DNA from: Acidobacteriota bacterium
Lineage (GTDB): Bacteria; Acidobacteriota; Thermoanaerobaculia; Thermoanaerobaculales; Sulfomarinibacteraceae
Length of the DNA stretch: 64,000 bases
Assembly: GCA_022340775.1 (NCBI GenBank)
Contig: JAJDNH010000087.1
Coordinates: forward strand, 23,440-87,439
Direction: 5' to 3'
Part shown: positions 5,060 to 46,836 of the stretch, one piece after another
Layout: every line of letters starts with the position of its first letter
Numbering within the stretch: position 1 is the first letter of the stretch
Translations under genes and position numbers: made by a program
Notes under the pieces: generated by a model
Databases searched by the model: none
What the model was told of the DNA's origin: nothing
Seen by the model: the letters and a program-made list of their open reading frames with translations, nothing else

Positions 5060-6342
5060 GTGCGCTGCGCCACCTCGTGATCGTGGTCGCCTCGTCGCTG
5101 CCCCTGCTGATCGCGGTCGTCCTCGCTACCGCGCACGCGGGGATGGGTGCCGTCATCGCCGGCTTCCTGGTCTGGCTCCTCGGAGTCACGGTGCTCAGCG
5201 CCACGGTCTGGCGCGAGACGGTGCGGCCGCTGAGTGACCTGCTCGACGCCCTCGGCACCCGTACCGGCCACCTGGCCCGGTGGCAGCTGCGCCTGCTGCA
5301 GGACGAGGCGGCCACGTGCCGCGAAGAGCGGGGCGCAATGGCCGACCTGATCGAGGATCTTTCCGCCGGCCTCGGTGACGGCCTGGTGGTCGTCGACACC
5401 GACCTCAAGGTGCGCCTGATCAACCAGGTGGCGCTCCGCTTCTGCGGCTGGGAAGAGGTCCGTACGGGTGCCCAGCTGGTCGAGGTGCTGCGCGACCCCG
5501 AGGCGCTGGCTGTGGTCCACTCCGCCGCAGCCGGCCGGCAACCGCAGCCGGTCGTGATCGAGAACCCGCGCGGGGTGTGGGAAGTACGGGCCTTCCCGGT
5601 GCGCCGCGGGGGCGCCGTGGTTCTGCTGACCGAGGTCTCGTCGGCGCGGCGTGCGGCCGAGCTCCGTCGCCGCTTCGTACAGGACCTCTCGCACGAGCTC
5701 CGTTCGCCGCTGGCTGTGCTGAGGACCACGGTCGAGGCGCTGGCCGAAGAGGTTGACCCTGCAAGCGCCGACCTGCTCGTCCGTCAGGTGGAGCGGATCA
5801 CGCTGCTGTCCGAAGAGCTCCATGAGCTCGCCGTCATCGAGGCCGGTGAGCTGCAGCTGCAGGTGGAAGAGGTCGACGTCAGTGGGCTGGTCAACGCCGT
5901 GATCAAGGACTTCCGCAGCCTCGCCGACCGCGGCGGGGTGCGGGTGGAGGTCCTGATCCCCGCCGACCTGAAGGTGAGGAGCGACCGGAGGGCGCTGTCC
6001 AGGGTGCTCGGCAACCTGATCGACAACGCCATCAAGTACAACCGAGAGGGTGGCTGGGTCCGCGTGCGGGCGTCGCGCGCCGATCACGCCGTTACCCTTG
6101 AAGTTGCCGACAGCGGCCAGGGAATCCCTCCGGATGAGCTGTCGGCGGTCACCCAGCGCTTCTATCGGGTCGACCGCGGCCGCACGCCCGGCAGCGGCGG
6201 CCTCGGCCTCGGCCTGGCTATCGTCAAGCACCTGGTACAGCGGCTGGGCGGCAAGATCGAGCTCGACTCACGGGTCGACGTCGGCACCACCGTGCGGATG
6301 GTGCTGCCCACGCTCCCGCCCGGTGACGGAGTGACGGAGTGA
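5056..6342 (+). CDS. phoR: Sensor histidine kinase, PhoR-like
   Basis: Start trimmed to ATG 5056, which overlaps the regulator stop. Two N-terminal TM helices are followed by a PAS-like segment. H-box FVQDLSHELRSPLAVL. N/G boxes NLIDNAIKYN and DSGQGIP...GGLGLGLAIVK. Confidence 0.65.
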   Translation: MSALRHLVIVVASSLPLLIAVVLATAHAGMGAVIAGFLVWLLGVTVLSATVWRETVRPLSDLLDALGTRTGHLARWQLRLLQDEAATCREERGAMADLIEDLSAGLGDGLVVVDTDLKVRLINQVALRFCGWEEVRTGAQLVEVLRDPEALAVVHSAAAGRQPQPVVIENPRGVWEVRAFPVRRGGAVVLLTEVSSARRAAELRRRFVQDLSHELRSPLAVLRTTVEALAEEVDPASADLLVRQVERITLLSEELHELAVIEAGELQLQVEEVDVSGLVNAVIKDFRSLADRGGVRVEVLIPADLKVRSDRRALSRVLGNLIDNAIKYNREGGWVRVRASRADHAVTLEVADSGQGIPPDELSAVTQRFYRVDRGRTPGSGGLGLGLAIVKHLVQRLGGKIELDSRVDVGTTVRMVLPTLPPGDGVTE

Positions 6343-6399: not shown

Positions 6400-7332
6400 T
6401 CAGCCGCCATTCTCCAGGCCGAGAAGATCGGACAGCAAGTCAAAGGCGAGCCGTGTGCGGACGCCCGGAGCGAGGGGATCGAGCTCCGGAATCAAGGTAA
6501 CGCGGTAGGCTACCGTACGCTCCTCGGCCGCCATCTCCGCGCGCGTCCACGGAAACCCCGGACCGAACTCTGCGACCCACCCTGCTCCGTCAGCAGCTAC
6601 ACTTGCAACCACCTCGCCGCCGCCTTCGAGGCGCAGCAGTAGCTCCTGTCCGTGCGGTTCGACTGTCCGCACATCCTCCCTGCGGCCGAGCACCCGCTCG
6701 TGGTCGCGCCAGCCCTGCCCCGTCAGGGCGAGAGCGCGCCGGACCTCGAGTGTGGCGGGCCGCGCTCCGGCCTCCAGGCCGAGACCTTCCAGTATCGCCG
6801 CGTCGACCCGCTGGGCGCGCACCAGGAGCGTCTCGAGCCGGTCCCGCCCCGCAGGAGCCCGGACTCGGCAGAACGGGTCTTCGGCCTCGATCACACCGTC
6901 GCGGAGCAAATACCGCGCCGACGTCGAGAACCAAAGAAGGTCGAACGGCCTCTCTGGGGACGCTTCGGGTGGTCCGGTGGTCGACAGGAGGAGGCGCTCC
7001 TCGCCGGCTGCCTCGCGGAGCACCCCGTCTGTCGACAGCCGATAGACTCCGTCTATCGCATCTTGCGCCTCGGCGGTCACCACCGCCGGGACCCCCGGCG
7101 CCGCCAGCCACTCCTCGCCACCGACGTAGGGCCACGTTGCCGCGAACGCGGACCCGTTGGCGGCGGCCGCACCGAGCAGGTGCTCGAGGACGGCGCCGGC
7201 CTCCCGGAGGCCTCTGACCCAGCCCCGCTCGATGACCTCCTCGGGAGACGGCGCATCCCCCTCCATGCCAAGGCGCAGCGGCATCCTCACCAGCTGTGCT
7301 GCGGCACGCGTCGCGGCCAGCGGTGCGTTCAC
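6400..7332 (-). CDS. Hypothetical protein
   Basis: 310-aa ORF. Its ATG overlaps the stop of the upstream enoyl-CoA hydratase gene (ATGA). I recognised no motif. GC3 looks coding-like. Confidence 0.5.
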   Translation of the reverse strand: MNAPLAATRAAAQLVRMPLRLGMEGDAPSPEEVIERGWVRGLREAGAVLEHLLGAAAANGSAFAATWPYVGGEEWLAAPGVPAVVTAEAQDAIDGVYRLSTDGVLREAAGEERLLLSTTGPPEASPERPFDLLWFSTSARYLLRDGVIEAEDPFCRVRAPAGRDRLETLLVRAQRVDAAILEGLGLEAGARPATLEVRRALALTGQGWRDHERVLGRREDVRTVEPHGQELLLRLEGGGEVVASVAADGAGWVAEFGPGFPWTRAEMAAEERTVAYRVTLIPELDPLAPGVRTRLAFDLLSDLLGLENGG

Positions 7333-8662: not shown

Positions 8663-9549
8663 CACCACCCCCGGCGCGAGAGCATCTCCTCAGGCGACAG
8701 CGAACCGATGTCGAGACCCGACATGGGCTCGCCGAGGCCAGCGGAGATCTCCACCAGCTTGGTCGGGTCCTGCCAGTGTGTGACCGCCTGGACAATCGCC
8801 TGCGCCCGGGTTGCCGGGTCCGCGGACTTGAAGATGCCGGAGCCGACAAAGACGGCTTCGGCGCCGAGCATCATGCAGAGCGCGGCGTCGGCGGGGGTCG
8901 CGACCCCGCCGGCAGCAAAGTTCGGGACCGGCAGGCGGCCGTGCTCGGCGACGTAGGCCACCAGTTCGAACGGCGCCTGCAGCTCCTTCGCCTGGGCCAT
9001 CAGCTCGTGGCCGTCGAGGACCGTGAGGGTCTTGATCTGACGCTGGACCGCGCGCAGGTGGCGTACCGCCTCGACGATGTTGCCGGACCCGGCTTCCCCC
9101 TTGGTGCGAATCATCGCGGCACCCTCTCCGACTCGGCGCAGCGCCTCGCCGAGGTTCCGACAACCGCACACGAACGGGACCTTGAACGGATGCTTGTAGA
9201 CGTGGTTCTCCTCGTCCGCCGGGGTCAAGACCTCGCTTTCGTCGATGAAGTCGACCTCGAGAGCCTCAAGCATCTTGGCCTCGGCGACATGACCGATCCG
9301 ACATTTGGCCATGACCGGAATCGATACCGTCTTCTGGATCTCACGGATCTTTTCGACCGGCGCCATCCGGGCCACGCCGCCCTGGACCCGAATATCGGCC
9401 GGCACCCGCTCCAGCGCCATGACCGCCGCCGCCCCGGCGTCCTCTGCGATCTTCGCCTGCTCGGCCGTCGTCACATCCATGATGACGCCGCCCTTGAGCA
9501 TCTCCGCGAGACCCACCTTGACGCGGAACTGGGGATCGTTGAAGTCCAT
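8662..9549 (-). CDS. pdxS: Pyridoxal 5'-phosphate synthase lyase subunit PdxS
   Basis: Start trimmed to ATG 9549, with GAGGGAGGA upstream. Contains [42 protein letters not shown] and further sequence highly characteristic of PdxS. Confidence 0.9.
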
Positions 9550-10242: not shown

Positions 10243-12757
<2,515 letters not shown>

Positions 12758-12758
12758 C

Positions 12759-16275
<3,517 letters not shown>

Positions 16276-16279
<4 letters not shown>

Positions 16280-17379
16280 ACCCTCATGGGCATCAGTACG
16301 TACAGGTACTCCTCCAGACGAGGATCATCCTCGACGGGAACGACCACACACTGAGTTCCCGCATCCTTGAGCTGCAGCTCGACCCTCTCGCAGTCGAGCA
16401 CCTGGAGCATTTCCATCAGGTAGCCTGCGTTGAGAGCAATCTCCAGTGTATCCCCTTGGTAAGCGACAGAGAGGGTTTCCTCGGCACTTCCCTTCTCGTA
16501 GCCGATCGACACCAAAGTGAGCTCCCCAGCGGAGTCGACGCGAAACCTCACGCCTCGGGCTTTTTCGTGGGCCAAGAGGCTGACCCGACGTAACGAGGCC
16601 AACAGCTCAGCACGATCGACCCTCACCCGGTTCGGGTTGTCCCGTACGATCACTCTCTCGTACTGGGGAAACCGGAGCTCGACCACCCTGGAGATGAGCT
16701 GCCGCTCTCCCATCCGGAAGCCGAGGTGGTTCTCTTCCGCCGACAGCTCGACCTTGTCGTCGGCAAAGCGGGCGAACTCTGCCAACAGCTTGCGTGGAAA
16801 CAGCTGCTGCTCAAACGGTGGCGCTCCATCGGGACCCTGGGCGCGCACAACCGCCAGCCGATGACCATCGGTGGCCGCAATCTCAACCTCGCCGGGCACC
16901 AGCTTCACGAGAGCACCGTTGAGCTGGAACTTCGGATCGTCCTTGGTGATCGCGAACGCGACCCGCTGCAGCATCAGCTGAAACAGCTCCAGCGACAGCC
17001 CGTAGTCGCCGGCCTGCGGCGCTTCCGGCACGGTCGGGTACTCGGTCGCGTCCGCTACCGACATTCGGGAGTGGAACCGGCCGCTCGTGAGCTCAACCGC
17101 GTCACCGTCCAGCCGAATCGTGAATTCCTCTTGCGGCAGGTTGCGGACCAGCTCTTGAAATACCCTGCTATCAAGGGTCAAGCGACCCTCGCCACTGGTC
17201 TCGGCCGGGCATGAGGTGATGATCGTCATGTCGAGGTCGGTCGCGACCAGGCGCAGCGATGAGTCAGACGCCTCGAGAAGGATATTGGAGAGAATCGGAA
17301 TCGTGGTGCGACGTTCCACAACACCCTGCAGGACAGAAAGCTCTTGCAGGACACGATTTCGCTGCAGTTTTAGTTCCAT
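16276..17379 (-). CDS. dnaN: DNA polymerase III beta sliding clamp
   Basis: Start trimmed to ATG 17379 (MELKLQRNRVLQELSVLQGVVERRTTIPILSNILLEA). 367 aa, typical clamp length and N-terminus. The upstream part of the ORF-track entry runs through the intergenic region. Confidence 0.95.
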
Positions 17380-17628
17380 GCACAGCCCCTTGCGGTGACT
17401 ACTAAGTAACTCACAGGTCGAAATATAGCATATATCATCGTCGTCGTCGAGCCTGTGAAGATGTGGAAGATCGGTCCAAGGTGCGCAGCAGCCAGAGGTT
17501 GTGCGAAGCCCAGCTGTGACTGCTACTGTCAATCGGCTGTGAACAGCTGTGGAAAATCCCCGCGCCGAGTCGTTCTTTCACAGGGTTGTGAGGCGCGCTG
17601 TGGAAAACCTGTGCTGGGAGCAAAGAGG
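17380..17628. other. Candidate oriC (dnaA-dnaN intergenic region)
   Basis: DnaA-box-like 9-mers, all in the same orientation: TGTGGAAGA (17462-17470), TGTGGAAAA (17548-17556), TGTGGAAAA (17599-17607). Several further TGTG-starting variants are present. The only strongly AT-rich stretch in the area is AAATATAGCATATATCAT (17421-17438), followed by (TCG)4. The consensus box is TGTGGATAA. Confidence 0.55.
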
Positions 17629-18945
17629 TCAGCTTTCGAAGTGCTCACGAAACGACGTCATGGTGGCGTCGAAGTCGGGGTTCGACTGCCGCATCTTCTG
17701 TACCGTGTCGACGGCGTAGATTACGGTCGAGTGGTGCTTGGCGAAGATCTTGCCGATCTCGGGGTAGCTGAGGTTGAGGATCTCGCGGATGAGGAACATG
17801 GCGACCTGCCGTGGCAGCGCAATCGATCGGCGGTTGGAGCGGCCCTTGAGATCAGCCACACGGACGCCGTAGTGGTGAGCGACGAAACGAATGACGTCGG
17901 GCGGAGAGGTGCGATGCTCGTCAGGCAGTAGCTGGGAGAGCGCGGTTCGGACAAGGTCCACGGTCATGGGGTGGCTGGTCAGCTGAGCGAAGGCGACAGA
18001 GCGGTTGAGGCAGCCTTCGAGCTCGCGGACGTTCTTTTGCACTCGGCGCGCGATGAAGAGCACGACATCCTCTGGAAGCTGCCAGCCGATGGCGCGCGCC
18101 TTCTCCCGCAGGATGGCGCAGCGCGTCTCGAGCTCAGGCGGCTGAATGTCGGCGAGCAGCCCCTGCAGAAAACGTGAGCGCAGACGCTCCTCAAGGCCCG
18201 GTATGTCAGCCGGGCGCGCATCGGAGGTGAAGACGACTTGGCGGCCGGCGGACTGGAGAGTGTTGAAGGTGTGGAAGAACTCGACCTGTGTTCGTTCCTT
18301 GCCTGCGATGAACTGGATGTCGTCGAGCAGCAACACGTCGGCAGCACGAAAGGTCGAGCGAAACTCATCCATCTTCTTGCGACGGATACAGTTGATGAGT
18401 TGGTTCACAAACTGCTCGGTGGTCATGTAGACAACCCGGAGGCGCTGGCCCCGTTCGTGGAGGATTCGGTGCGCTATGGCGTGAAGGAGATGGGTTTTGC
18501 CAAGCCCTGAGCCGCCGTAGATGAACAGCGGGTTGTAGGCCTGGCCGGGGCGCTCGGCGACAGCCTCCGCGGCGGCGCAAGCAAACTGGTTGGACGGTCC
18601 GATGACGAATCGGTCGAACGTGTACGCAGGATTCATCTGTGGCGACGCGTGCCGGCCGGTGGTTGAGGTAGAGGAACTCTCGACGGAAGCGGTCTGCGGC
18701 GCGTGTGAACCATTGGGCGTTTCCAGCTCGATGTGGAAGTCCGGGCCATAGTGACTCCGGGCGACGGTCTGAATGTCGCGGAGGAGGTGGTCACGCACCC
18801 AGTCGGTCACAATGTCGTTTGTGCATGAAAGAACCAGGGTCGAGCCCTCGAGCCGGACCGGGGAGAGTGGACGGATCCAGGTGCCGTACTCCTCGGTGCC
18901 GAGCATCTGCCGCAAGTGGGGCTGGAGGTCTATCCACCGTTTCAT
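17629..18945 (-). CDS. dnaA: Chromosomal replication initiator DnaA
   Basis: 438 aa. AAA+ Walker A GGSGLGKTHLLHA, LLLDDIQF, and C-terminal DNA-binding domain ...SYPEIGKIFAKHHSTVIYA. Confidence 0.97.
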   Translation of the reverse strand: MKRWIDLQPHLRQMLGTEEYGTWIRPLSPVRLEGSTLVLSCTNDIVTDWVRDHLLRDIQTVARSHYGPDFHIELETPNGSHAPQTASVESSSTSTTGRHASPQMNPAYTFDRFVIGPSNQFACAAAEAVAERPGQAYNPLFIYGGSGLGKTHLLHAIAHRILHERGQRLRVVYMTTEQFVNQLINCIRRKKMDEFRSTFRAADVLLLDDIQFIAGKERTQVEFFHTFNTLQSAGRQVVFTSDARPADIPGLEERLRSRFLQGLLADIQPPELETRCAILREKARAIGWQLPEDVVLFIARRVQKNVRELEGCLNRSVAFAQLTSHPMTVDLVRTALSQLLPDEHRTSPPDVIRFVAHHYGVRVADLKGRSNRRSIALPRQVAMFLIREILNLSYPEIGKIFAKHHSTVIYAVDTVQKMRQSNPDFDATMTSFREHFES

Positions 18946-19029
18946 CGCAGTGTCCTAGCATAGCAGAGGCAGCGGCCGTGGAGGAAGAGGGAGGAGGGGA
19001 GCAGAGGAAGGCCGAACAGGCGCGAGAGC

Positions 19030-19058
19030 CTTGACAGCTGCCAGCCGCCGGGATATCC
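19030..19058 (+). promoter_or_regulatory. Sigma70-type promoter candidate for rpmH
   Basis: TTGACA (19030-19035), a 17-nt spacer, then TATCCT (19053-19058). It lies 32 nt upstream of the rpmH ATG. GGAGAG precedes the start. Confidence 0.5.
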
Positions 19059-19089
19059 TGACGCGCCCAGTTTTGGAGAGTGATGAACG

Positions 19090-19224
19090 ATGAAAAGGAC
19101 CTTTCAACCGAATAACCGCCGACGCAAGAAAAAGCATGGCTTTCGCGCGCGGATGCGAACCCGGGCAGGCCGCCAGGTGCTCGCCGCTCGTCGCCGAAAG
19201 GGACGGCGGCGGCTCGCCGCCTGA
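19090..19224 (+). CDS. rpmH: 50S ribosomal protein L34
   Basis: Too short for the ORF track. My translation is [44 protein letters not shown]. This is the canonical L34 sequence, in the expected position upstream of rnpA. Confidence 0.95.
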
Positions 19225-19226
19225 GG

Positions 19227-19697
19227 ATGCGGCGGCTGCCGCGATGGAGACGTCTGCGGCGGCGGCGGGAGTTTCAGCGCGTGTATTCAGCCGGCGCTCG
19301 GGCTGCGGGGCGCTGGCTTGTAGTGTTCGGCCGGCCGACGACGGGCGACGAGCCGGCGCGCCTCGGCGTCACGGCATCACGGCGCGTAGGTGGCGCCGTG
19401 GTGCGCAACCGCTGCAAGCGGCGGATCAGGGAACTGTACCGGCTCCACCAACCGGTCGTGTGCGATCGTCTTGAGTTGGTGGTCAACGCACGTCCGGGCT
19501 GCGAGTCGGCGCCGTGGGAGCAGCTGGTGCTGGAGTATGAGCGGTGCGTGACACGCCTACAGGAGCGGCTCGAGCGGCGGCCGCCTGCCTCAGGGCCTAC
19601 AAGAAGTGGATCTCTCCCCTTCTTCCACCGGCGTGTCGATTCTCACCAACGTGCTCGGAGTACGCAGCAGAAGCCATCGGTCGATACGGACTCGTGA
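19227..19697 (+). CDS. rnpA: Ribonuclease P protein component
   Basis: ATG 2 nt after the rpmH stop. Basic N-terminus ...[12 protein letters not shown]...[24 protein letters not shown]. The frame stays open to 19697, overlapping yidD out of frame. The true C-terminus is uncertain. Confidence 0.8.
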
Positions 19698-19774
19698 AGG
19701 GAAGCTGGTTGGGACTGAAGCGCCTGCTCCGGTGTCACCCGTTCCACCCGGGAGGGTATGATCCGGTTCCCTGA
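19544..19774 (+). CDS. yidD: Membrane protein insertion efficiency factor YidD
   Basis: 76 aa, GTG start. ...[58 protein letters not shown], the canonical YidD motif. Confidence 0.9.
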
Positions 19775-36558: not shown

Positions 36559-36635
36559 CGGGGCGTAGCTCAGCTTGGCAGAGCGCACGGTTCGGGACCG
36601 TGAGGCCGGTGGTTCAAATCCACTCGCCCCGACCA
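36559..36635 (+). tRNA. tRNA-Pro (anticodon CGG)
   Basis: Cloverleaf folded by hand. Acceptor CGGGGCG/CGCCCCG, D-arm GCTC/GAGC, anticodon stem CACGG/CCGTG with loop TTCGGGA, T-arm GGTGG-TTCAAAT-CCACT. Discriminator A and encoded CCA. Confidence 0.92.
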
Positions 36636-38487: not shown

Positions 38488-38555
38488 TCCCCTTCTGAGC
38501 TCCAGGCCGCGGGCCCGGACCTCCCCGTGAGCTGGTTGTATATAATACTCGACCT

Positions 38556-39011
38556 GTGGTGTGCCCCACGCCCCTCACTGCTTCCCTCGTGCTGTCGAGT
38601 CGCTTCGAGAATATCGAGGTCGCCGAACGCGTGCTGAGGGATCTGTGCGAGCGCGCGGGCTGCGACGAAGACGACCTGCGGCCGTTGCTGAGTGCCCTGT
38701 GGGAAGCCCTGGCCAACGCGATCCGACATGGCAACCGGCGCCAGGTGGACCGCAGGGTACTCGTGGAGTACTCGGTCGATGGCAACGCAGCGGTCATCAC
38801 GGTTCACGACCAGGGCGAAGGTTTCGATCCCGAGGCCGTACCGGATCCCACCGCCCCCGAGAACTTGCTGCGACCGAGTGGCCGCGGTATTTTCTTCATG
38901 AAACAGCTGATGGACCGGGTGGAGTTCACCTCTCCCCCAGCGGGCGGCACCTGTGTGACGATGCGGCGCCGCCTGAACGCAACCGCGAGGAGTACCGACA
39001 ATGAAGAGTGA
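38556..39011 (+). CDS. Anti-sigma regulatory factor / Ser-Thr protein kinase (RsbW/SpoIIAB-like, HATPase_c_2)
   Basis: ...[16 protein letters not shown] (N-box)...[13 protein letters not shown]...[16 protein letters not shown] (G-boxes). GTG start lies 10 nt after a TATAAT at 38541-38546. An alternative start is GTG 38589. Confidence 0.75.
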
Positions 39012-39339
39012 AGTTCAGGATCAGGCCGACATCCGCGTCATCAGGCTCTCCGGCAAGATCACGATCGGTGCCGGCGATGTCAAGCTGCGTGAGTTGATCC
39101 GCGACGCCCTCGAGAGTGGCCGCACCAAGATCCTCCTCGACCTCGCCAAGGTATCGGCGATGGACTCCTCGGGGATCGGCGAAATGGTGGCGGCGTACAC
39201 CACGGTCAGGAAGCGTGACGGCCAGCTCAAGCTTCTCAACCTGTCTCCGAAGATCAACGATATCCTGCAGGTGACACAGCTGATCACCGTGTTCGATGTC
39301 TTCGATGACTCGGAGGAGGCGATGGCATCCTTCGCGTGA
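39001..39339 (+). CDS. STAS-domain anti-sigma-factor antagonist (RsbV/SpoIIAA-like)
   Basis: 112 aa. ...ILLDLAKVSAMDSSGIGEMVAAY (phosphorylatable Ser context DSSGIG)...LKLLNLSPKINDILQVTQL. Overlaps the kinase gene by 11 nt. Confidence 0.85.
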   Translation: MKSEVQDQADIRVIRLSGKITIGAGDVKLRELIRDALESGRTKILLDLAKVSAMDSSGIGEMVAAYTTVRKRDGQLKLLNLSPKINDILQVTQLITVFDVFDDSEEAMASFA

Positions 39340-39411
39340 GCGCCGGCGGCGGCTGTGCGCCGGTCGTGGGTGGCCGGCGTGGCCGACCGATGACGATCTA
39401 GGACTGTCGCC

Positions 39412-40287
39412 ATGGCACACGGCGAGCCACTTCCGTGGGACGGCTTCCAGAGGGAGGTCGACGAGACGCTGCGATCGGTGGCCGCGGGAGAGGTAGCATC
39501 CGGTGGCGTTGATGCTGCCTGGCGGGAGGCGCTGCTGTCGCCCGGCAAGCGCGTGCGGCCGATCCTGATGTTGCTGGTGGCCGGGATGTTCTCGGTGCCC
39601 AGGCGTCGGGTCTTGCCGCTGGCAGTCATCGTGGAGATGGTCCACGCCGCGTCCCTGGTGCTCGACGACCTTCCCTGCATGGACGACGCCGACACCCGGC
39701 GAGGACGGCCGAGCCTTCACAAGACCCACGGCGAAGCGGTTGCCACGCTGGCGTCCTTCGAGTTGCTCAGTCGTGCCCATGCCCGGCTGCCTGCAGCATG
39801 TGCGGTCGCACGCCTTCCACGGCGACGGTGGGCCGCGCTCGGCGATGAGCTGGCCCACGTCGTGGAGCAGTTGTGCCGGGGCCAGGCGCTCGACCTGGCC
39901 GGCACGGCGGAGGCCGTCGACGAGCTGGAGCGTGTGCATGCACAGAAAACCGGCTCGCTGTTCGTGCTGTCGGCTCGGTGGGGCGCTCTGGCGGGGCGTC
40001 CTTCGAGCGTCGAGCTCGATGCCGTTGAGGACTATGCGCGCAACCTCGGCCTTGCCTTCCAGGTGATGGATGACGTGCTCGACTGCGTGGGTGACGCGGG
40101 CCGTCTCGGAAAGCCGGTCGGCCAGGATGCGTCGCGAGCGACGTTCGTCGATCTGCTCGGCCTCGACGGCGCACGTCGTCTCGCCGACGAGCTGACTGCC
40201 ACAGCGGTCCACTGCCTGGCCCCGTTTGGGCGGCGGGGCGCCGAGCTCGAGACCCTGGCTCGGGAAGTTGTGTCCCGTGTCCGGTGA
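39412..40287 (+). CDS. Polyprenyl diphosphate synthase, CrtE-like (probable geranylgeranyl diphosphate synthase)
   Basis: 291 aa. First Asp-rich motif VEMVHAASLVLDDLPCMDDADTRRGRPSLH. From memory this closely resembles Pantoea CrtE (VHAASLILDDMPCMDDAKLRRGRPT), with small residues before the motif. Second motif GLAFQVMDDVLD. Confidence 0.8.
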   Translation: MAHGEPLPWDGFQREVDETLRSVAAGEVASGGVDAAWREALLSPGKRVRPILMLLVAGMFSVPRRRVLPLAVIVEMVHAASLVLDDLPCMDDADTRRGRPSLHKTHGEAVATLASFELLSRAHARLPAACAVARLPRRRWAALGDELAHVVEQLCRGQALDLAGTAEAVDELERVHAQKTGSLFVLSARWGALAGRPSSVELDAVEDYARNLGLAFQVMDDVLDCVGDAGRLGKPVGQDASRATFVDLLGLDGARRLADELTATAVHCLAPFGRRGAELETLAREVVSRVR

Positions 40288-41944
40288 GCCCCAGAGGTGG
40301 GACGAGGCGGTCCACGCGCTGCGCGAGCGCGGCTATCTCGGTCGTGGCGGAGCCGCACCGGCCGGCGGCTGGCGGCGGTTCGCTGCGCTCGGCTGGCTTG
40401 CCGGCGGTGTGGCCCTGGCCGTGGTCTCCGCGGTTCCGGTGGCCGCTGCACCGCCCTCGGCGTGGGCCGTCACCGTCAGCCTGGTCCTGCCGATCGTCGT
40501 GCTCGTCCTCGTCATGTTGGTGCCGCTGCTGCTGCTCGCGGCTTCGCGGGCCCATCGTGCGGGGCTCGGCGTCGGCAGTGTCGCCGCAACAGAGGCGATC
40601 CTGGTCGGAGTCGGCGTCGCGGCGGCCTGGCTCACGGCGGTGGCGGAGCCACCGCAGGTGGTCTCCGGCTGGCGGCTGACATGGGCCGTGATCGCCGGAC
40701 TGGGCGCAGTTTTCCTCACCGTCCGCGGCGTCGGACGCACGGTAGCGGGCTCGCTGCTGCACATGCGAGCCGCACCGGCAGGGCCGGCACCTCGGCTACG
40801 TACGGTCTCCGCCGTGACGCTTGCCGCGGCCGTCGTGCTTGCCGCGGTGAGTCAACTCGGTGGCGGCCACACCCGAGCCGATGGCGGGCCGGGAGCTCTC
40901 CAAGTGCGTCCGGCATGGCGGCCGGTGGCGGTCATCGGGATTGATGGTCCGACGCGCGATGAGGTGCTCCTGCTGGCACAGCAGAATGCGCGCCTCGCAG
41001 AGATGCGAGACTGGTCCTGGGCGCGGATAGAGCTCGGTGGCGAAGGCCGGTCGCTGCCGGTGCACTGGATCACGATCGCGACCGGCGTGTCCCCCCAAGA
41101 GCATGGTGTGACCACGCTGCGGCAGGTGCACGTCGTCGCCGCCAACCGTGATCTCCTGCTGTCCCCGGCTCTCGACCGCCTGATCGTCGCCGTGTGGGGC
41201 AAGCTCGGGGTGGTGCAAGAGCGGACTGTGCCGGCGGCGTACCGCCGCGCACCGACCGTGTGGGAGATGGCGGCGCGCGCAGGCGCGGCGGTGCGGATCG
41301 CCGGATGGTGGGGCAGCTTCCCTCCCCGCCGCGTACGCGGTGTGGTGGCTTCGGAACGCTGGTTGTTCACCGGCAACCGGAACCGAGACACCGTCTATCC
41401 ACCGGACGCAGCGGGCGTGCCGTCGGGCGGAGGGATCTCAGCGCTCGCCATGGACCGGCGGGCGGTGGCGATGATCGGTGGCGCCGACGCCTCGCAGGAA
41501 CGGCTGGCCATGGCGTACCTCCCGGGTTGGTGGCTGGAGGAAACCAGGGAGCGTCGCCCGCCGTTGCTGGCTGCCGAGGCCCTCCAACCCCACCTCGAGT
41601 TGCTCGGGAGCGCCGTCGAGACCCTGATGGGTAAAGGCTACGAGGTTTGGATCATAGCGCTCGTTCCCAATGGCGGCGGATGGCTGATGTCGTCGGCGGC
41701 GTCCGAAGGGGAAAGGCCACAGCTCCGGCCGCCCGACCTGGTGGCGACGCTGCTCGACGCCCTCGGTCTGCCGCCGGCCCAAACCGTCGGGGGAATCGTC
41801 CGCCGGGACCTCTCCGGGACGTCAGAGCGCCCGGTCCTGGCGGCTGCGGACTACGGAGGTCCGCCGCCGCTCGCCTCACAGACGACCGCCGCCGAGGGAC
41901 GCGAGCAGCTCGAGCTTCTGCGGAACCTCGGCTATCTGCAGTAG
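40277..41944 (+). CDS. Membrane-anchored alkaline-phosphatase-superfamily protein (type I phosphodiesterase/nucleotide pyrophosphatase-like)
   Basis: Start moved to GTG 40277, an 11-nt overlap with the synthase stop. The N-terminal third has several TM helices. Then VAVIGIDGPTRDEV...HWITIATGVSPQEHGV...PTVWEMAARAGAAVRIAGWWGSFPP...VVASERW. This matches the IGIDG / W-T-x-ATG-x-P-x-HG / WW-x-x-P pattern of PF01663-like proteins as I recall it. Confidence 0.55.
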   Translation: MSGEPQRWDEAVHALRERGYLGRGGAAPAGGWRRFAALGWLAGGVALAVVSAVPVAAAPPSAWAVTVSLVLPIVVLVLVMLVPLLLLAASRAHRAGLGVGSVAATEAILVGVGVAAAWLTAVAEPPQVVSGWRLTWAVIAGLGAVFLTVRGVGRTVAGSLLHMRAAPAGPAPRLRTVSAVTLAAAVVLAAVSQLGGGHTRADGGPGALQVRPAWRPVAVIGIDGPTRDEVLLLAQQNARLAEMRDWSWARIELGGEGRSLPVHWITIATGVSPQEHGVTTLRQVHVVAANRDLLLSPALDRLIVAVWGKLGVVQERTVPAAYRRAPTVWEMAARAGAAVRIAGWWGSFPPRRVRGVVASERWLFTGNRNRDTVYPPDAAGVPSGGGISALAMDRRAVAMIGGADASQERLAMAYLPGWWLEETRERRPPLLAAEALQPHLELLGSAVETLMGKGYEVWIIALVPNGGGWLMSSAASEGERPQLRPPDLVATLLDALGLPPAQTVGGIVRRDLSGTSERPVLAAADYGGPPPLASQTTAAEGREQLELLRNLGYLQ

Positions 41945-42004: not shown

Positions 42005-43069
42005 CTACCTGGGGGAGGAATGAGCAGGGACGATGAGGGTTGCCTCGTGCTCACCGGCCGTCACGCCGGCCAGTCTCGTGCCCGTGAGCAGAGCGCAGGC
42101 GCGGTCCAGTGCCGTTGCTCGGTGGCGCTCGGACGGGACGTTCTTGTCCTCGAGAGCCGGTCTTGCGGCGGCGATCCGGCCGTCGTCTTGGACGGTCATG
42201 TGGAGCGGATACCGGCCGCTGGCAAGATCAGCAGGGAGGCGCACTGCGAGAGCGAAGGCGCGTCCCCCGATCTCCACAGAGGACGCAGCCTGCCGGCCAG
42301 CCGTGCTGCCCGTGGTGACACCCAGCCTCACAAACCCTTTCTCCTCGGACGTCTGCGCAGGTCTTGCCGCGCCCGGCTGGCCAGAGACCGGCTCCGCGCG
42401 AACGCGAGGGGGGAGCGTCGGGCCGGCCTTATTCACTGACTCCTGTTCCTTCACCGATACCTCCTGGCGCCGGGAGACACGGGGAGCACGAGCGTGCTCG
42501 CCCTCCGCGGCGGCCTGCGGCCTAGGAACCGGGCGCGCAGAAGGCTGAGCCGCCTCGCCGCGAGCGCCCTCCGCCCCGCCCATCCGCCTGGCGGCCGGCG
42601 GGGACGGTGCGCGAGAGGCCAGACGATCAACCTCCTGCAGTGGGCCCTCCGGCCTGCTCTGAGCGGTGCTCGCCCGTGAGGGCTCGGCGTGCGCCTCGTC
42701 CTTTGCCTTGGCCTGTTGGGTAGAGCCGGCCGGGCGTGGGATCTGCGGCTGTGAGTGCTGGCTGAGGCGCAGCACGACCGCGGTGCCGATCACGAGGGTG
42801 GCGGCGATGGCCGCGACGCGAAGTGCCGGCCGCAGACGTGGGGCCGGAGGCGACGAGCGCTCGAGGTGGCCGAGCAACCGGTCCAACGCAGACGGCGCCT
42901 GCTCGGAGCTGGCCAACTCCCGGATCGCGTCCCGGATGCGCCGCAACGCGTCAAGCTCCTCCTTCAACGTCTGGTCTGCCGCCAGACGCGTCTCGAGCTC
43001 GCGACGCGCGTCCTGGTCGAGGTCGTCGTCCAGGTAGCGGCTGAGCAGCTCGGTGGTGTCCGGTGTCAT
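42005..43069 (-). CDS. Anti-sigma factor (single-pass membrane protein)
   Basis: 354 aa. N-terminal anti-sigma domain MTPDTTELLSRYLDDDLDQDARRELETRLAADQTLKEELDALRRI. TM helix LRVAAIAATLVIGTAVVL. Pro/Ala-rich linker and a C-terminal domain of unknown type. ATGA-type overlap with the ECF sigma stop. Confidence 0.7.
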   Translation of the reverse strand: MTPDTTELLSRYLDDDLDQDARRELETRLAADQTLKEELDALRRIRDAIRELASSEQAPSALDRLLGHLERSSPPAPRLRPALRVAAIAATLVIGTAVVLRLSQHSQPQIPRPAGSTQQAKAKDEAHAEPSRASTAQSRPEGPLQEVDRLASRAPSPPAARRMGGAEGARGEAAQPSARPVPRPQAAAEGEHARAPRVSRRQEVSVKEQESVNKAGPTLPPRVRAEPVSGQPGAARPAQTSEEKGFVRLGVTTGSTAGRQAASSVEIGGRAFALAVRLPADLASGRYPLHMTVQDDGRIAAARPALEDKNVPSERHRATALDRACALLTGTRLAGVTAGEHEATLIVPAHSSPR

Positions 43070-43611
43070 CGTCTCTCTACCGCCTCCCTCAGTGTTCCCC
43101 TTGCCCGCGCCAGGCGTGAGCGAACGGTTCCGATCGGGATCCCCAGGGTTCGCGAGATCTCGTCATAGCTGAGCCCCTCGGCGTCTCTCAGCCAGATGAC
43201 GGCCCGTTGCTCCTCCGGCAGCCGGTCGAGAGCCGCGTCGACCTGCTCGAGAAGCTCTCCTGCGGCGGCCCGCCTCTCCGGGTCGGGTGCCGGGTCGTGA
43301 ACCTCCACGCCCTCGGCCGGGTCCGTCGAAGCAGTTGGCACCTCGACCAGGTGGAGGGCGCCGCGGCTTCGGCGATGACGCGACCGCAGGCAGTTCCAGG
43401 CCACCTGGAACACCCACGTACTGAGCTTGGAGGCGCCGCGGAAGCCGGGCAGACCCCGCCATACGCGCAGGAAGATCTCCTGGGTCGCATCGAGGGCATC
43501 GTCCTCGGTCCGCGACATGCGCCGTGCCAGACGCCAGACCGGATCCTTGTAGCGAGCATAAACCTCCTGGAACTCCACGTTCCCAGTGTGCCATAGGAGC
43601 TCACCTGCCAC
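43066..43611 (-). CDS. ECF-family RNA polymerase sigma factor (sigma-70 group IV)
   Basis: 181 aa. Region 2 ...DALDATQEIFLRVWRGLPGFRGASKLSTWVFQVAWN. Region 4 ...EEQRAVIWLRDAEGLSYDEISRTLGIPIGTVRSRLARAR. Start is GTG 43611, or GTG 43578. Confidence 0.88.
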   Translation of the reverse strand: MAGELLWHTGNVEFQEVYARYKDPVWRLARRMSRTEDDALDATQEIFLRVWRGLPGFRGASKLSTWVFQVAWNCLRSRHRRSRGALHLVEVPTASTDPAEGVEVHDPAPDPERRAAAGELLEQVDAALDRLPEEQRAVIWLRDAEGLSYDEISRTLGIPIGTVRSRLARARGTLREAVERR

Positions 43612-43868: not shown

Positions 43869-44261
43869 CTAAACCAGCTCGTCGACGAGCTCGCGGACTC
43901 GGCCCTCGATCATGCGGGCGATGGCGAGGTAGGTCTCGTCGTCCTCGCCAAACGGGTCGGAGATACTCCACACCCGGCTACCGGCCGCCAGGTTGAGCGG
44001 TAGCCAGCGCAGCCCTTCGCGGCCGATCAAGCTCACTACCAGGTCGACCTCTTCAAGAGGCACCTCGCCGAGCCCCTTGGACCTGAGCTCCCGATGGCTG
44101 TAGCCCAGGGTGGTCAGCGCGCGGCGCGTTCCGCTCGCGATGCGGCCGGTGGGAGAGATGCCGGCGGACAATGCCTCGAGCCGCCCGCCGCTCAGACTGC
44201 GGGCCATCGCTTCGGCCATCGGCGAGCGGCACGTGTTGCCGACGCAGATGAAGAGCACCAT
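43869..44261 (-). CDS. Low-molecular-weight protein-tyrosine phosphatase
   Basis: Start trimmed to ATG 44261. P-loop MVLFICVGNTCRSPMAEA and general-acid DP motif (SISDPFG). It lacks the extra Cys pair of Staphylococcus-type ArsC, so a phosphatase call is preferred over arsenate reductase. Confidence 0.8.
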   Translation of the reverse strand: MVLFICVGNTCRSPMAEAMARSLSGGRLEALSAGISPTGRIASGTRRALTTLGYSHRELRSKGLGEVPLEEVDLVVSLIGREGLRWLPLNLAAGSRVWSISDPFGEDDETYLAIARMIEGRVRELVDELV

Positions 44262-44279
44262 CGGACGTGACACGCGGCG

Positions 44280-44321
44280 ATTGTACGCGGGGTTTGTGGT
44301 CGACGGAAACCCCAGTACAAT
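44280..44321. repeat. Near-perfect inverted repeat in the phosphatase/tnaA divergent intergenic region
   Basis: ATTGTACGCGGGGTTT-gtggtcgacgg-AAACCCCAGTACAAT forms 7+7 paired positions with a small internal mismatch. The 11-nt centre contains GTCGAC. A second hairpin, CCCGCG-N11-CGCGGG, follows at 44324-44346. Confidence 0.7.
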
Positions 44322-44376
44322 CACCCGCGCTCGCACGCGACGCGGGCAACAAGCGCCGGCGCAGAGGAGGGATACC

Positions 44377-45789
44377 ATGCAACACGGTGCCGAGCCCTGG
44401 CGGGTCAAGGTCGTCGAGCCCATCTCCCTACCCGACAAGGACACCAGGAGGCGACGGCTTGAAGAAGCCGGCTACAATGTTTTCGCGATTCCGGCCGCCG
44501 ACATCTTCATCGATCTCCTGACCGACTCCGGCACCTCGGCGATGTCGCAAAACCAGTGGGCCGGGTTGATGGTCGGCGACGAGTCGTACGCCGGCGCGCG
44601 CAACTTCTACAACTTCCAGGAGACGGTCCAGGAAATCACCGGGCTGCCGTTCGTGATCCCGACTCATCAGGGACGGGTGGCGGAGAACCTCCTCTTCACC
44701 ACCCTGGTCAAGCCTGGCATGAGGGTACCCTCCAACAGCCACTTCGATACCACCCGAGCCAACATCGAGGTGCACGGCGGCGAAGCGGCCGACCTGGTGA
44801 TTGCCGAGGGCCGCGATCCCGATGCCGACCACCCGTTCAAAGGCAACATTGACCTGGGGCGCCTCGACGCATTCCTGAAAGAGAACGGCCGCGACCACGT
44901 CCCGATCGCGATGCTCACGATCACGAACAACTCCGGCGGCGGGCAGCCGGTTAGCCTGGCCAACATCCGTGGCATGGCGGAGGTGTGTCGGCGGCACGGC
45001 GTGCCGTTCTTCCTCGACGCCTGCCGCTTCGCGGAGAACGCGTGGTTCATCAAGCAGCGGGAGCCGGGACAGGGCCACCGCAGCGTGCCCGAGATCGTGG
45101 CGGACATGTTCCACGCTGCCGACGGCTGCACCATGAGCGCCAAAAAGGACGGGCTCGCGAACATCGGCGGCTTCATCGCGATGCGTGATCAGGGGCTGTT
45201 CGAGAAGCTGAAGAACATGCTGATCCTGATTGAGGGCTTCCCGACCTATGGCGGTCTCGCCGGCCGCGATCTGGAGGCCGTGGCACGCGGACTCCGCGAG
45301 GTGCTCGACGAGCGCTACCTGCAGTTCAGGGTCGGACAGGTGCAGGCCTTCTGGGAACACCTCGACCGCCGCGGAGTGCCGATGATCCGTCCTCCCGGCG
45401 GCCACGCCGTCTACCTGGACGCGCGGCGGTTCCTTCCCCACCTGGCGCAGGAGGATTACCCTGCGCAGGCGCTGACCGTGGCCCTGTACCTCGATGGAGG
45501 CGTGCGCGGAGTCGAAATTGGCGGCGTCATGTTTGGCAAGACCGATCCGCAGACCGGTACCGCCGTCTGGCCGCAGCTGGAGCTGGTACGCCTGGCAATC
45601 CCACGCCGCGTGTACACCAACACACACCTCGAGTACGTAGCCGAAGTGATCGAGAGGTTGTACGCCAACCGGGCGGCGGTTGGCGGCCTGCGGATGGTGT
45701 ATGCGGCGGAGGTGCTCCGTCACTTCACGGCGCGGTTCGAACCGCTTTCGCCAGCACGGCCAGCCGCTCCGCCTGCGGACCAGGTGTAA
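44377..45789 (+). CDS. tnaA: Tryptophanase (beta-eliminating lyase family)
   Basis: Start trimmed to ATG 44377, with GAGGAGG upstream. IDLLTDSGTSAMS, IPTHQGRVAEN, ITNNSGGGQPVSLANI, RFAENAWFIKQRE, PLP-lysine context MSAKKDGLANIGGF, EGFPTYGGLAGRD. HFDTTRAN carries the Asp of TnaA (FDTT) rather than the Thr of tyrosine phenol-lyase (FTTT). Confidence 0.85.
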   Translation: MQHGAEPWRVKVVEPISLPDKDTRRRRLEEAGYNVFAIPAADIFIDLLTDSGTSAMSQNQWAGLMVGDESYAGARNFYNFQETVQEITGLPFVIPTHQGRVAENLLFTTLVKPGMRVPSNSHFDTTRANIEVHGGEAADLVIAEGRDPDADHPFKGNIDLGRLDAFLKENGRDHVPIAMLTITNNSGGGQPVSLANIRGMAEVCRRHGVPFFLDACRFAENAWFIKQREPGQGHRSVPEIVADMFHAADGCTMSAKKDGLANIGGFIAMRDQGLFEKLKNMLILIEGFPTYGGLAGRDLEAVARGLREVLDERYLQFRVGQVQAFWEHLDRRGVPMIRPPGGHAVYLDARRFLPHLAQEDYPAQALTVALYLDGGVRGVEIGGVMFGKTDPQTGTAVWPQLELVRLAIPRRVYTNTHLEYVAEVIERLYANRAAVGGLRMVYAAEVLRHFTARFEPLSPARPAAPPADQV

Positions 45790-45854: not shown

Positions 45855-46571
45855 ATGCCGCGGAGGTGCGTGCAGGGCGTGGTTCTAACGGGTTACAACA
45901 CCGACATCGATTTTCGAGGGATGACCTACCACGTCCAGACCGAGGACAAGGGGCGGTCGAACCCCGTGATCGAGTCTCTGGTCTACGCCAACGGCGAGAT
46001 TCTCTACTCGCGCCGGACCCAGTACCGGGAGCTGGTGGACGAGGGCATCGACGTCAAAGCGGTGGCCAGCCTGATGGATCGCCAGCACCGGACAATTGTC
46101 GAGGCGATTCGGCGCGGCATGCTCGAAGAGCTCTCCTCGCACCCGGAGGTCGCAGACGAGGGAGACGATACCGCCGTCTCCTCGGCGTCGCCGCTGGTCC
46201 CGAGCCAGGGTGAGGACCGTACCCTGGATCAGGTGATTCTCGAGTACCTCGAGGCCCAGAAGGAGCAGGCACACCTGGTGCTGCGGTCGGCCGAAAACGA
46301 GGACTTTATTTACGGCGCCGAGGTCACGGTCCGGGTTGTGGCGCTGAACTCCCGCTCGGATGAGCCGGAGGGCGGAGTCCGTATCTCGGTGGTGTTCAAG
46401 TCGACCGCAGAGCCGCGCCGGCTGTTGCTGGCCGAGGGTGTGACCGATGACGAGGGCGCGTTTGAGGCGGTCGCGCAGCTCCCTGATTTCAATGGTGGGA
46501 CGTCGGCGGTGGTCGTGGCAGCCGAGGGACGGCTGGGCCAAGCCGAGATGAAGCACCTGGTCCACCGCTGA
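45855..46571 (+). CDS. Hypothetical protein
   Basis: 238-aa ORF with good GC3. N-terminal ...GYNTDIDFRGMTYHVQTEDKGRSNPVIESLVYANGEILYSRRTQY is a conserved-looking small domain I cannot name. Start is either ATG 45855 (possible leaderless) or ATG 45921. Confidence 0.55.
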   Translation: MPRRCVQGVVLTGYNTDIDFRGMTYHVQTEDKGRSNPVIESLVYANGEILYSRRTQYRELVDEGIDVKAVASLMDRQHRTIVEAIRRGMLEELSSHPEVADEGDDTAVSSASPLVPSQGEDRTLDQVILEYLEAQKEQAHLVLRSAENEDFIYGAEVTVRVVALNSRSDEPEGGVRISVVFKSTAEPRRLLLAEGVTDDEGAFEAVAQLPDFNGGTSAVVVAAEGRLGQAEMKHLVHR

Positions 46572-46658: not shown

Positions 46659-46734
46659 GGGCCGTTAGCTCAATTGGCAGAGCAAGGGACTCTTAATCCC
46701 TAGGTTGGAGGTTCGATTCCTCCACGGCTCACCA
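46659..46734 (+). tRNA. tRNA-Lys (anticodon CTT)
   Basis: GGGCCGT acceptor pairing with ACGGCTC. D-arm GCTC/GAGC. Anticodon stem AGGGA/TCCCT with loop CTCTTAA. T-arm GGAGG-TTCGATT-CCTCC. Encoded CCA. Confidence 0.92.
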
Positions 46735-46748
46735 ACCTCCTTTTCGCT

Positions 46749-46836
<88 letters not shown>

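Follow-up and report, generated by a model that had tools for sequence, protein, structure and literature searches.

A class-restricted gene cassette in Thermoanaerobaculia joins a partner-switching kinase/STAS pair with a prenyl diphosphate synthase and a membrane protein with a degenerate AlkP-like domain

Results and Discussion

We analysed a 64-kb window, which is the whole stretch of DNA considered here, from an Acidobacteriota bacterium of the Thermoanaerobaculia (GCA_022340775.1, contig JAJDNH010000087.1), where four consecutive genes of the same strand code for a serine protein kinase, a STAS protein, a prenyl diphosphate synthase and an inner-membrane protein with an alkaline phosphatase (AlkP)-like domain (Table 1). 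These genes constitute a real, class-restricted and undescribed cassette, in which a partner-switching module of the non-sigma or orphan type is combined with a pseudo-enzyme of PbgA-like design, and their association hints at a non-transcriptional control of isoprenoid supply. The synthase and the membrane protein are the tight, always coupled unit of the cassette; the kinase/STAS pair is an ancient and highly constrained switch, which is joined to that unit in most Thermoanaerobaculia lineages and can stand alone.

Conservation of the four-gene order

Re-reading of the open reading frames (ORFs) reproduced exactly the coordinates given in the initial annotation of this DNA, including the two overlaps of 11 nt, between the kinase and STAS genes and between those of the synthase and the membrane protein, and the gap of 72 nt that separates both pairs. 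The GTG at 40277, taken as the start of the membrane protein, is also the start in the public gene call (P0001, 555 aa, 100% identical).

Table 1. Features of the four-gene cassette and of the sigma factor genes convergent on it (positions in the 64-kb window).
Feature	Position	Strand	Length	Basis or remarks
Extended -10-type promoter element	38537-38546	+		Sequence TGTATATAAT; conserved in relatives
RsbW/SpoIIAB-type serine protein kinase	38556-39011	+	151 aa	GTG start; PF13581
Single-domain STAS protein	39001-39339	+	112 aa	PF01740, DSSG motif
Spacer between the two gene pairs	39340-39411	+	72 nt	ORF limits
Short-chain trans-prenyl diphosphate synthase	39412-40287	+	291 aa	PF00348
Inner-membrane protein with AlkP-fold domain	40277-41944	+	555 aa	In-frame GTG start; AF2 model
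Anti-sigma gene	42005-43069	-	354 aa	Convergent on the cassette
ECF sigma gene	43066-43611	-		4-nt overlap with the anti-sigma gene

We found the identical four-gene order in ~30 distinct loci from genomes and metagenomes (loci are numbered with the prefix L), in at least four different flanking contexts; ten of them belong to the group of the window, 14 to a second group and six to two more distant groups. Within the window's group, none of the ten distinct loci with enough sequence departs from this order; their deduced products show 52–90% (kinase), 67–92% (STAS), 57–82% (synthase) and 41–77% (membrane protein) identity with those of the window, and both 11-nt overlaps are repeated in the three loci, out of three, with called genes. 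The same overlaps are found again in relatives with proteins of only ~50% identity, so the arrangement is beyond chance.

The same four genes also appear in very different surroundings. For instance, L015 contains a homologue of the synthase with 52% identity in another neighbourhood (enolase, DivIC, a Ser/Thr kinase, a peptidyl-prolyl isomerase (PPIase) and DUF8575) and nevertheless keeps the whole cassette, with a fourth protein that matches the profile of the membrane-protein family with a probability of 100% and an E value of 4e-47. A metagenome scan seeded on the second group returned 80 loci, which were then mapped with hidden Markov models (HMMs); alignment A2 was too divergent for the metagenome search patterns and A3 was used. 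Loci of the second group are flanked by Pkinase, PPIase and DUF8575 genes on one side and by a response regulator and an aminotransferase on the other, and those of the distant groups (L043/L049/L050 and L055/L065/L092) by Rce1-like, DUF8575 and ADH genes. We thus rejected mere housekeeping synteny as the whole explanation, since groups with other flanks keep the order. The initial annotation had proposed neighbourhood conservation as a check on its four-gene unit, and the four genes indeed remain syntenic well past close relatives, in ~30 loci with differing flanks.

Association is closest between the last two genes: those for the synthase and the membrane protein abut or overlap in every locus checked. 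Across the cassettes the identity of the membrane protein drops to ~30% or less. In addition, 11 further loci contain both genes and are cut by the end of the contig. Wherever enough upstream DNA is available for a synthase-linked membrane protein, the kinase/STAS pair lies directly upstream, with the only exception of one locus (L019/L020). Remote members of the membrane-protein family, including the catalytic ones described below, have no synthase, kinase or STAS gene near them. In a scan of species-representative genomes, the membrane-protein family appeared solely in metagenome-assembled genomes labelled Thermoanaerobaculia or Acidobacteriota; likewise, the STAS clusters of the distant groups carry the NCBI labels 'Thermoanaerobaculia bacterium' or 'Acidobacteriota bacterium'. 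By these labels the cassette is a class-level trait, every labelled locus being either Thermoanaerobaculia or Acidobacteriota.

A canonical kinase/STAS pair with no sigma factor on its strand

The kinase contains a HATPase_c_2 domain (PF13581, E 6e-31) and matches the NCBIfam models for anti-sigma F and RsbW, in all cases below their cut-offs; its nearest solved sequences are SenB, RsbW, SpoIIAB and Rv1364c, and its translation includes the N box, the G1 box (DQGEGFD) and the G2 box (GRGIFF). In turn, the STAS protein matches PF01740 (E 1.6e-17) and passes the cut-off of the anti-sigma factor antagonist model TIGR00377 (68.5 bits versus 53.45), with SpoIIAA, TM1442 and RsbV as the nearest solved sequences, and displays the phospho-acceptor motif DSSG within 'AMDSSGIG'. 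No DNA-binding part was recognisable in it with Pfam, and the 112-aa product is a bare domain.

A PP2C phosphatase was found neither in the 64-kb window nor in the annotated flanks of the relatives, and the window contains no group 3 sigma factor. Furthermore, there is no sigma factor on the strand of the cassette, and the only one in the 64 kb is an extracytoplasmic function (ECF) sigma encoded convergently, so that the initial statement that no sigma gene is adjacent on the same strand holds across the whole window. The accompanying premise, that partner-switching modules normally sit beside their target sigma factor, turned out to be overstated, as non-sigma outputs and orphan pairs are on record, among others in a review of non-canonical STAS proteins (PMC8256260; bioRxiv 10.64898/2026.04.08.717354; PMC13373217).

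A short-chain prenyl diphosphate synthase

The third product belongs to the polyprenyl synthases (PF00348 polyprenyl_synt, E 1e-49) and is apparently an active enzyme, with intact first (DDLPCMDD) and second (DDVLD) Asp-rich motifs and the 'GKRVRP' motif for binding of isopentenyl diphosphate (IPP). Among NCBIfam models it scores 208 bits with FPPsyn (cut-off 275) and 170 bits with CrtE (cut-off 460), and its nearest solved enzymes are a mixture of geranylgeranyl diphosphate (GGPP) and farnesyl diphosphate (FPP) synthases. Its predicted product would be of either C15 or C20 length; the chain-length region, 'AASLVLDDLPCMDDA', has the small residues Ala-Ser at positions -5/-4 before DDLPCMDD, as in CrtE and type II GGPP synthases, which by the known chain-length rules favours C20.

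The synthase thus shares its fold and both Asp-rich motifs with CrtE (type II GGPP synthase) and IspA (FPP synthase), and 'AASLVLDDLPCMDDA' is CrtE-like. Unlike them, it falls below the equivalog cut-offs of both, has no carotenoid genes in the window and no xseB-dxs genes near, and its gene is always followed in the cassette by that of the membrane protein, abutting or overlapping it.

A related synthase with 52% identity occurs in a more distant genome (L017, 5001-6444; GCA_964269765.1), where it adjoins AhpC and zinc-ribbon genes; a different STAS gene lies ~200 nt downstream on the opposite strand, and there is neither a kinase nor a membrane-protein gene.

A membrane protein with a degenerate AlkP-like domain

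HMM searches bore out three of the domains named in the initial annotation (PF13581, PF01740 and PF00348), but the match of the membrane protein to PF01663 (E 0.0088, 16.1 bits) stayed below the cut-off of 23, and NCBIfam gave zero matches. Its assignment to the AlkP superfamily, which did not stand by sequence, was recovered from the predicted fold: an AlphaFold2 (AF2) model built from 20 homologues (pLDDT 79) comprises a short N-terminal helix, five long helices (residues 32-56, 60-94, 99-122, 131-161 and 174-194) and an alpha/beta domain, and Foldseek retrieved from the PDB the phosphonoacetate hydrolase PhnA and NPP/autotaxin enzymes, with probability 1.0 and E values of ~1e-5. The only full-length match in the PDB was PbgA/YejM (6v8q), with a TM-score of 0.39. 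The assignment is also backed by profile links to relatives that pass PF01663. With the profile of the family alignment, a search of the solved structures yielded two chance-level matches only, and no relative; homology with PbgA went undetected. By the positive-inside rule, the hydropathy profile and the loops rich in Arg that follow helices 2 and 4 predict a cytoplasmic N-terminus and a periplasmic AlkP-like domain.

Most of the residues of an AlkP active site are lost from the proteins encoded next to a synthase. In all of them the column of the nucleophile contains Leu or Pro (Leu in the window) and the metal-binding His residues are gone. Where catalytic relatives have 'D..H', the window's group has 'PGWW' and the other synthase-linked groups retain the Asp alone. 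At the place of 'DHG', both the window's group and the second group read 'GGGW' or 'GG(T)', and L019 and the more distant groups read 'D(P/A/G)GR'. What survives in the window's group is only D223, the Asp that binds the first metal ligand position (in 'IDG'), and the sequence 'TG..P..HG', both invariant. By comparison, the relatives in L013 and L014 pass PF01663 (E ~1e-20) and keep the full catalytic set, that is, 'DG' (DA in L014), the Ser in 'TLS', 'E.DA..H', 'SDHG' and a later His. Canonical AlkP chemistry is thus very unlikely in the cassette protein and, because nucleophile and metal ligands are lost, binding or sensing is likelier than hydrolysis; the probable role of this periplasmic domain is to bind or sense, comparably to PbgA/YejM.

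Among 1.84 billion cluster representatives, a profile search retrieved 1321 relatives at E≤1e-3, 267 at 1e-10 and 24 at 1e-30. These membrane proteins with an AlkP-like domain make up a family that had no name so far, with ~1300 representatives at 50% clustering and terminal 'LxxxGYL' motifs, within which catalytic and degenerate members can be separated. Every member ends in 'L[RK]SLGY[LI]' ('LRNLGYLQ' in the window, 41918-41941). Conserved features predicted to be cytoplasmic are an 'HRxG' loop, a 'PRLR' loop and an N-terminal 'L[RQ]xxGYL' ('LRxRGYL' in the window, 40277-40369), and this N-terminal copy is missing from the catalytic proteins of L013 and L014.

The catalytically intact members are encoded as a tandem duplicate in L014 (4904-6835 and 7254-9185) and also occur in L013 (849-2789). 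At both loci the genes beside them code for a 5'-nucleotidase and for a capsule assembly protein of the Wzi-like type, quite unlike the synthase-linked setting.

Promoter and spacer

The TATAAT hexamer of TGTATATAAT ends 9 nt before the GTG of the kinase gene. In related loci of every group, including a clade without the synthase (see below), boxes of the types TGnTATAAT, TATACT or TATGAT precede the kinase start by 8–12 nt with few exceptions; hexamers matching at least five of the six positions have a background frequency of 2.3e-4 per position in these GC-rich loci. A consensus scan that needs a -35 plus a -10 gave no match at the kinase promoter. From the conserved boxes we infer a housekeeping, sigma-70 extended -10 promoter, not a SigB-like one, and the position of the hexamer 8–12 nt from the kinase start implies that the operon transcript would be leaderless or nearly so. 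A promoter of this housekeeping type fits constitutive expression combined with post-translational control.

In the spacer of the window, the consensus scan found neither a promoter nor a terminator. Compared with shuffled sequences, its RNA shows no gain in folding stability (z = 0.05), and with this value we dropped a hairpin (CGGTCG...CGACCG) spotted by eye. Neither the sequence nor the length of the spacer is conserved: it measures 61–72 nt in the window and in three relatives of its group with called genes, and is missing in the distant cassette lineages, where STAS and synthase genes overlap or abut. The 72-nt spacer is, therefore, a local feature of the window's group.

Proposed working of the cassette

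We propose that the four genes act as one conserved cassette with two modules, probably expressed as a single transcript from the extended -10 promoter upstream of the kinase gene. Module A would be a canonical partner-switching pair, with an RsbW-type Ser kinase and a STAS protein phosphorylatable on the serine of DSSG, and module B would combine a short-chain (C15-C20, CrtE-like) synthase with a five-helix inner-membrane protein; translational coupling of these two is implied because their genes overlap by 11 nt. The cytoplasmic face of the membrane protein, with LRxRGYL and the HRxG and PRLR loops, may position or modulate the synthase at the membrane and, by the logic of PbgA/YejM, the protein may also report the state of some lipid or envelope component of the periplasmic face. 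The kinase/STAS switch would then add a phosphorylation-dependent, post-translational control of module B or of its pathway; unless bound by unphosphorylated STAS protein, the kinase would act on a partner other than a sigma factor. Such control would resemble that of the STAS switches governing envelope-polysaccharide synthesis. For example, a partner-switching-like system of Anabaena acts on an exopolysaccharide biosynthetic enzyme (bioRxiv 10.64898/2026.04.08.717354). A separate precedent is that of the CapK/CapS kinase/STAS pairs, which control the operon directly downstream (PMC13373217).

A non-sigma, post-translational output fits the housekeeping-type promoter, the intact motifs of kinase and STAS protein and the lack of an adjacent sigma gene; the data themselves show the order and overlaps of the genes, the domains, the lost residues, the pattern of conservation and the promoter motif, and co-transcription, membrane topology, the product of the synthase and every protein-protein contact in this scheme are what we infer. 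In all, we tentatively favour a linked system as a possible reading, where the membrane protein would serve the synthase as anchor or sensor and the kinase/STAS pair would modulate the module or the pathway. It is unlikely that the linkage goes as far as a transmembrane homeostat of isoprenoid precursors, where the PbgA-like pseudo-AlkP sensor would read a lipid at the periplasmic face, e.g. a prenyl-phosphate carrier or other envelope lipid, and together with the kinase/STAS pair would directly gate the short-chain synthase of the cell. If true, this would be the first partner-switching system controlling isoprenoid supply instead of a sigma factor.

Separability of the two modules and alternative explanations

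A number of observations weigh against a functional link between the two modules. All five sampled loci of a sister clade, whose STAS proteins are 73–76% identical, keep the kinase/STAS pair without the synthase or the membrane protein. They occupy the same oriC-proximal site, in the order ATP synthase, SNF, LexA, CutA, kinase, STAS and a convergent anti-sigma/ECF pair, also without the cyclophilin gene, and one of the five is labelled Thermoanaerobaculales. In a neighbour-joining tree of the concatenated kinase and STAS sequences, the synthase-less clade branches as sister of the window's group, inside the set of cassette-bearing groups, and the simplest reading is that module B was lost or relocated in it. 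Conversely, one locus (L019/L020) contains synthase and membrane protein without the kinase/STAS pair. Because the sister clade keeps the pair without module B, kinase and STAS protein must have a role that does not need an adjacent module B. In this sense, 7995 of 8000 candidates in the STAS search matched at E≤1e-10, the best 120 of them being 71–100% identical, whereas the same word-seeded search with the membrane protein produced only 20 matches at E≤1e-3; the conservation and abundance of the STAS protein suggest a core role independent of the synthase/membrane-protein unit. Likewise, part of the conservation of the cassette is due to shared ancestry in a slowly rearranging, origin-proximal region, because the labelled lineages all belong to one class and their flanks are chain-linked by partial synteny.

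Separate expression has also to be considered, since a TATGAT box lies a few nt 5' of the synthase start in L005 (~7087-7092), L006 (~1799-1804), L009 (~6710-6715) and L012 (~3343-3348), with weaker variants at that site in L002 (TATGAG) and L004 (TAGGAT). The equivalent in the window is TAGGAC (39399-39404), without the critical final T. An internal promoter for synthase and membrane protein, which may give a leaderless transcript of both genes, is thus plausible for some relatives but doubtful for the window, and read-through from the kinase promoter is still compatible with it. The initial annotation had considered that a terminator or an independent promoter in the gap would separate the two pairs; in the window the gap is free of both, as far as the scan detects, but several relatives have the -10-like TATGAT box there. 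In the same way, the linked four-gene unit that it had described stands as an order kept in ~30 loci, but the pair is separable, as seen in the five loci of the sister clade and in L019/L020.

These data would agree with two independent neighbours, namely a kinase/STAS pair that is a core regulator of Thermoanaerobaculia with its target, a sigma factor or another protein, encoded elsewhere, and a separate, co-inherited module B, with no regulation between them beyond possible read-through. Independence is favoured by the presence of the pair alone at the same site across the whole sister clade, by the extreme conservation and abundance of the STAS protein, by module B without the pair in L019/L020, by the non-conserved spacer of 61–72 nt in the window's group and the TATGAT boxes before the synthase in L005, L006, L009 and L012, and by the location of the locus in a broadly syntenic, oriC-proximal housekeeping region. 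It accounts less well for an order maintained in ~30 loci through at least four changes of flanks, for the overlapping or abutting STAS and synthase genes of distant lineages, which leave no intergenic room, for an association that is nearly obligate from the side of the membrane protein, and for the lack of a terminator-like signal after the STAS gene in the window; on balance, we take independence as possible and as only slightly less likely than the linked system. As for the output, the kinase could instead be the anti-sigma factor of the convergent ECF sigma, and the module would then not be an orphan. The ECF pair begins 60 nt past the stop of the membrane-protein gene, in agreement with the initial annotation, and is immediately downstream of the cassette in the window, L001/L004 and L003/L008, as well as beside the kinase/STAS pair in the five synthase-less loci. 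However, it is not next to the cassette in L002, L005, L006, L009, L010, L011 and the more distant groups, so it behaves as a variable neighbour and we rejected the ECF sigma as the fixed missing target. Moreover, this sigma factor has its own co-transcribed anti-sigma factor, with genes overlapping by 4 nt, and the sigma factors that RsbW-type kinases are known to bind are of group 3, not of the ECF type. We consider this target very unlikely.

A different alternative concerns module B. The initial annotation had seen in the membrane protein a polytopic phosphodiesterase-like enzyme; as an active AlkP phosphodiesterase or transferase, it would make or modify a prenyl-phosphate-linked envelope component from the product of the synthase, under partner-switching control. 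The AlkP fold in the AF2 model and in Foldseek, the invariant D223 in 'IDG' and 'TG..P..HG', and the tight coupling to the synthase are in favour of this activity, as is the combination of five helices with an outside domain, which is that of LtaS and EptA, AlkP-superfamily lipid-headgroup transferases. Additionally, PbgA/YejM itself has been reported to be a metalloenzyme (PMC7576196). Even so, an enzyme is hard to reconcile with Leu or Pro at the nucleophile column of all synthase-linked members, with 'D..H' and 'DHG' motifs that are replaced or reduced while L013 and L014 keep the full set, with a PF01663 match below the cut-off, with the lack of any relative among solved structures in the profile search, and with a product of the synthase that is cytoplasmic when the domain is predicted to be periplasmic. 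We consider an active enzyme improbable, and a binding or sensing role, as in the linked system proposed above, is the one that we retain for the membrane protein.

Comparison with known systems and significance

The closest counterparts of module A are the RsbW-RsbV and SpoIIAB-SpoIIAA pairs of Bacillus, the same pair of proteins, with a HATPase_c_2 kinase (N, G1 and G2 boxes) and a DSSG STAS protein, and the nearest solved sequences. Unlike the Bacillus modules, here the gene order is reversed, with the kinase gene first, and an isoprenoid synthase gene follows instead of a sigma gene; there is also no PP2C phosphatase gene near, in the 64-kb window, the promoter is a housekeeping-like extended -10, and the RsbW and SpoIIAB NCBIfam cut-offs are not reached. 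A STAS phospho-switch with a biosynthetic or envelope output, and with regulators encoded with or near biosynthetic genes, is known from HenR/All4160/Alr3423 of Anabaena (bioRxiv 10.64898/2026.04.08.717354) and from SypE/SypA of Vibrio fischeri (PMC10120452, PMC4517449). In contrast to these systems, there is here no polysaccharide locus and there are no glycosyltransferase genes, the linked genes being those of a prenyl diphosphate synthase and of a membrane protein of pseudo-AlkP type, and the STAS protein is a free product of 112 aa. CapK-CapS (PMC13373217) is alike in that the genes of an RsbW-like kinase and of its STAS-like substrate immediately precede the operon under their control, but CapS is a DNA-binding repressor and the downstream genes are immune, whereas the STAS protein of the cassette is a bare domain and its downstream genes are metabolic and envelope genes.

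For module B, the best comparison is PbgA/YejM (LapC), an inner-membrane regulator of lipopolysaccharide synthesis that links its periplasmic domain to the control of LpxC (PMC6921655, PMC7240159, PMC9356133). Common to both are five N-terminal transmembrane helices followed by a periplasmic AlkP domain, predicted in our case, with a degenerate active site, and the logic may be alike, with a membrane sensor that controls a cytoplasmic committed-step enzyme, a role that we extend to the cassette protein by analogy. The differences are the lack of detectable sequence homology, a weak global superposition, a periplasmic core nearer to the NPP/PhnA branch and the partner, which is encoded here by a prenyl synthase gene instead of belonging to a LapB/FtsH/LpxC system.

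In the literature we found no description of this arrangement, in line with the initial annotation, which knew of none, and nothing relevant that joins STAS proteins or partner switching with isoprenoid or GGPP synthases. Partner-switching modules are increasingly seen as general phospho-switches beyond sigma factors, with few such outputs known, and the cassette would add a metabolic or envelope output, prenyl diphosphate synthesis. It would also provide a second case of PbgA-like design, where an enzyme of a committed step works together with a membrane protein whose AlkP-type domain is dead. In its hosts, Thermoanaerobaculia that are uncultured, the regulatory pair clearly has another job too.

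Genomic setting and neighbouring genes

The window is a high-GC, origin-proximal housekeeping region, with dnaA, recF, gyrB, gyrA, rnpA, yidC, mnmE, mnmG, rsmG and parB. The replication origin is likely at ~12000-19700, where gyrA, gyrB, recF and dnaA (minus strand) are followed by rnpA and yidC (plus strand), and the cumulative GC skew has its minimum at ~14–16 kb. The segment at 27.9–33.7 kb matches the position of the ATP-synthase genes annotated in relatives. The cassette is preceded, in this order, by SNF, lexA, cutA and cyclophilin genes, and followed by the ECF pair, a low molecular weight (LMW) phosphatase, a tryptophanase-like lyase, Rho, PBP2, mreC and mreB; in relatives, trigger factor, ClpX and Lon are found between the lyase and Rho.

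Over the STAS and synthase genes, a simple gene finder based on GC3 chose an antisense ORF of 428 aa (38926-40212, minus strand), which we rejected as a high-GC artefact because three Pfam-supported genes lie on the opposite strand. Downstream of the cassette, the longest ORFs for the LMW phosphotyrosine phosphatase (43869-44444, minus strand) and the tryptophanase-like lyase (44110-45789, plus strand) overlap by ~330 nt; the calls in relatives are shorter (119–141 aa and ~476 aa, respectively), and the true starts of both genes are probably internal. A protein of 238 aa without Pfam match (45855-46571, plus strand) is encoded between the lyase gene and the tRNA genes that precede the trigger factor gene, and a gene for 229–237 aa, also without Pfam match, occupies the equivalent position in all syntenic relatives. 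The sole Rfam matches in the window are three tRNAs: tRNA-Pro(CGG) at 36559-36635, between SNF and lexA, and tRNA-Lys(CTT) and tRNA-Leu(TAG) at 46659-46734 and 46749-46833, upstream of the trigger factor gene.

Other genes accompany the cassette in some of its lineages. A secreted-looking HExxH protein (DUF8575/DUF6782, 'HELxHAxQ') is encoded divergently from the kinase in three cassette lineages (minus strand of L015, 3126-4268; L010, ~4570-5652; L065, 2365-3750; and L092, 2344-3735), and the products of L015 and L065 are 34% identical (E 1e-48); the window lacks this gene and has the cyclophilin gene at that position. The HExxH protein may be a fifth, facultative partner of the cassette. A single-domain response regulator of ~125 aa is encoded after the membrane protein in L015 (7616-8008, plus strand) and in 14 further loci of the second group; it is near the cassette on the opposite strand in L010 (~9010-9375, minus strand) and not present in the window. 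Finally, the most distant groups have, immediately before the cassette, a gene for an Rce1-like/CPBP intramembrane protease (L043, 2563-3498; L049, 2675-3541; L050, ~1800-2702; L092, ~1510-2292; L065, ~1936-2334).

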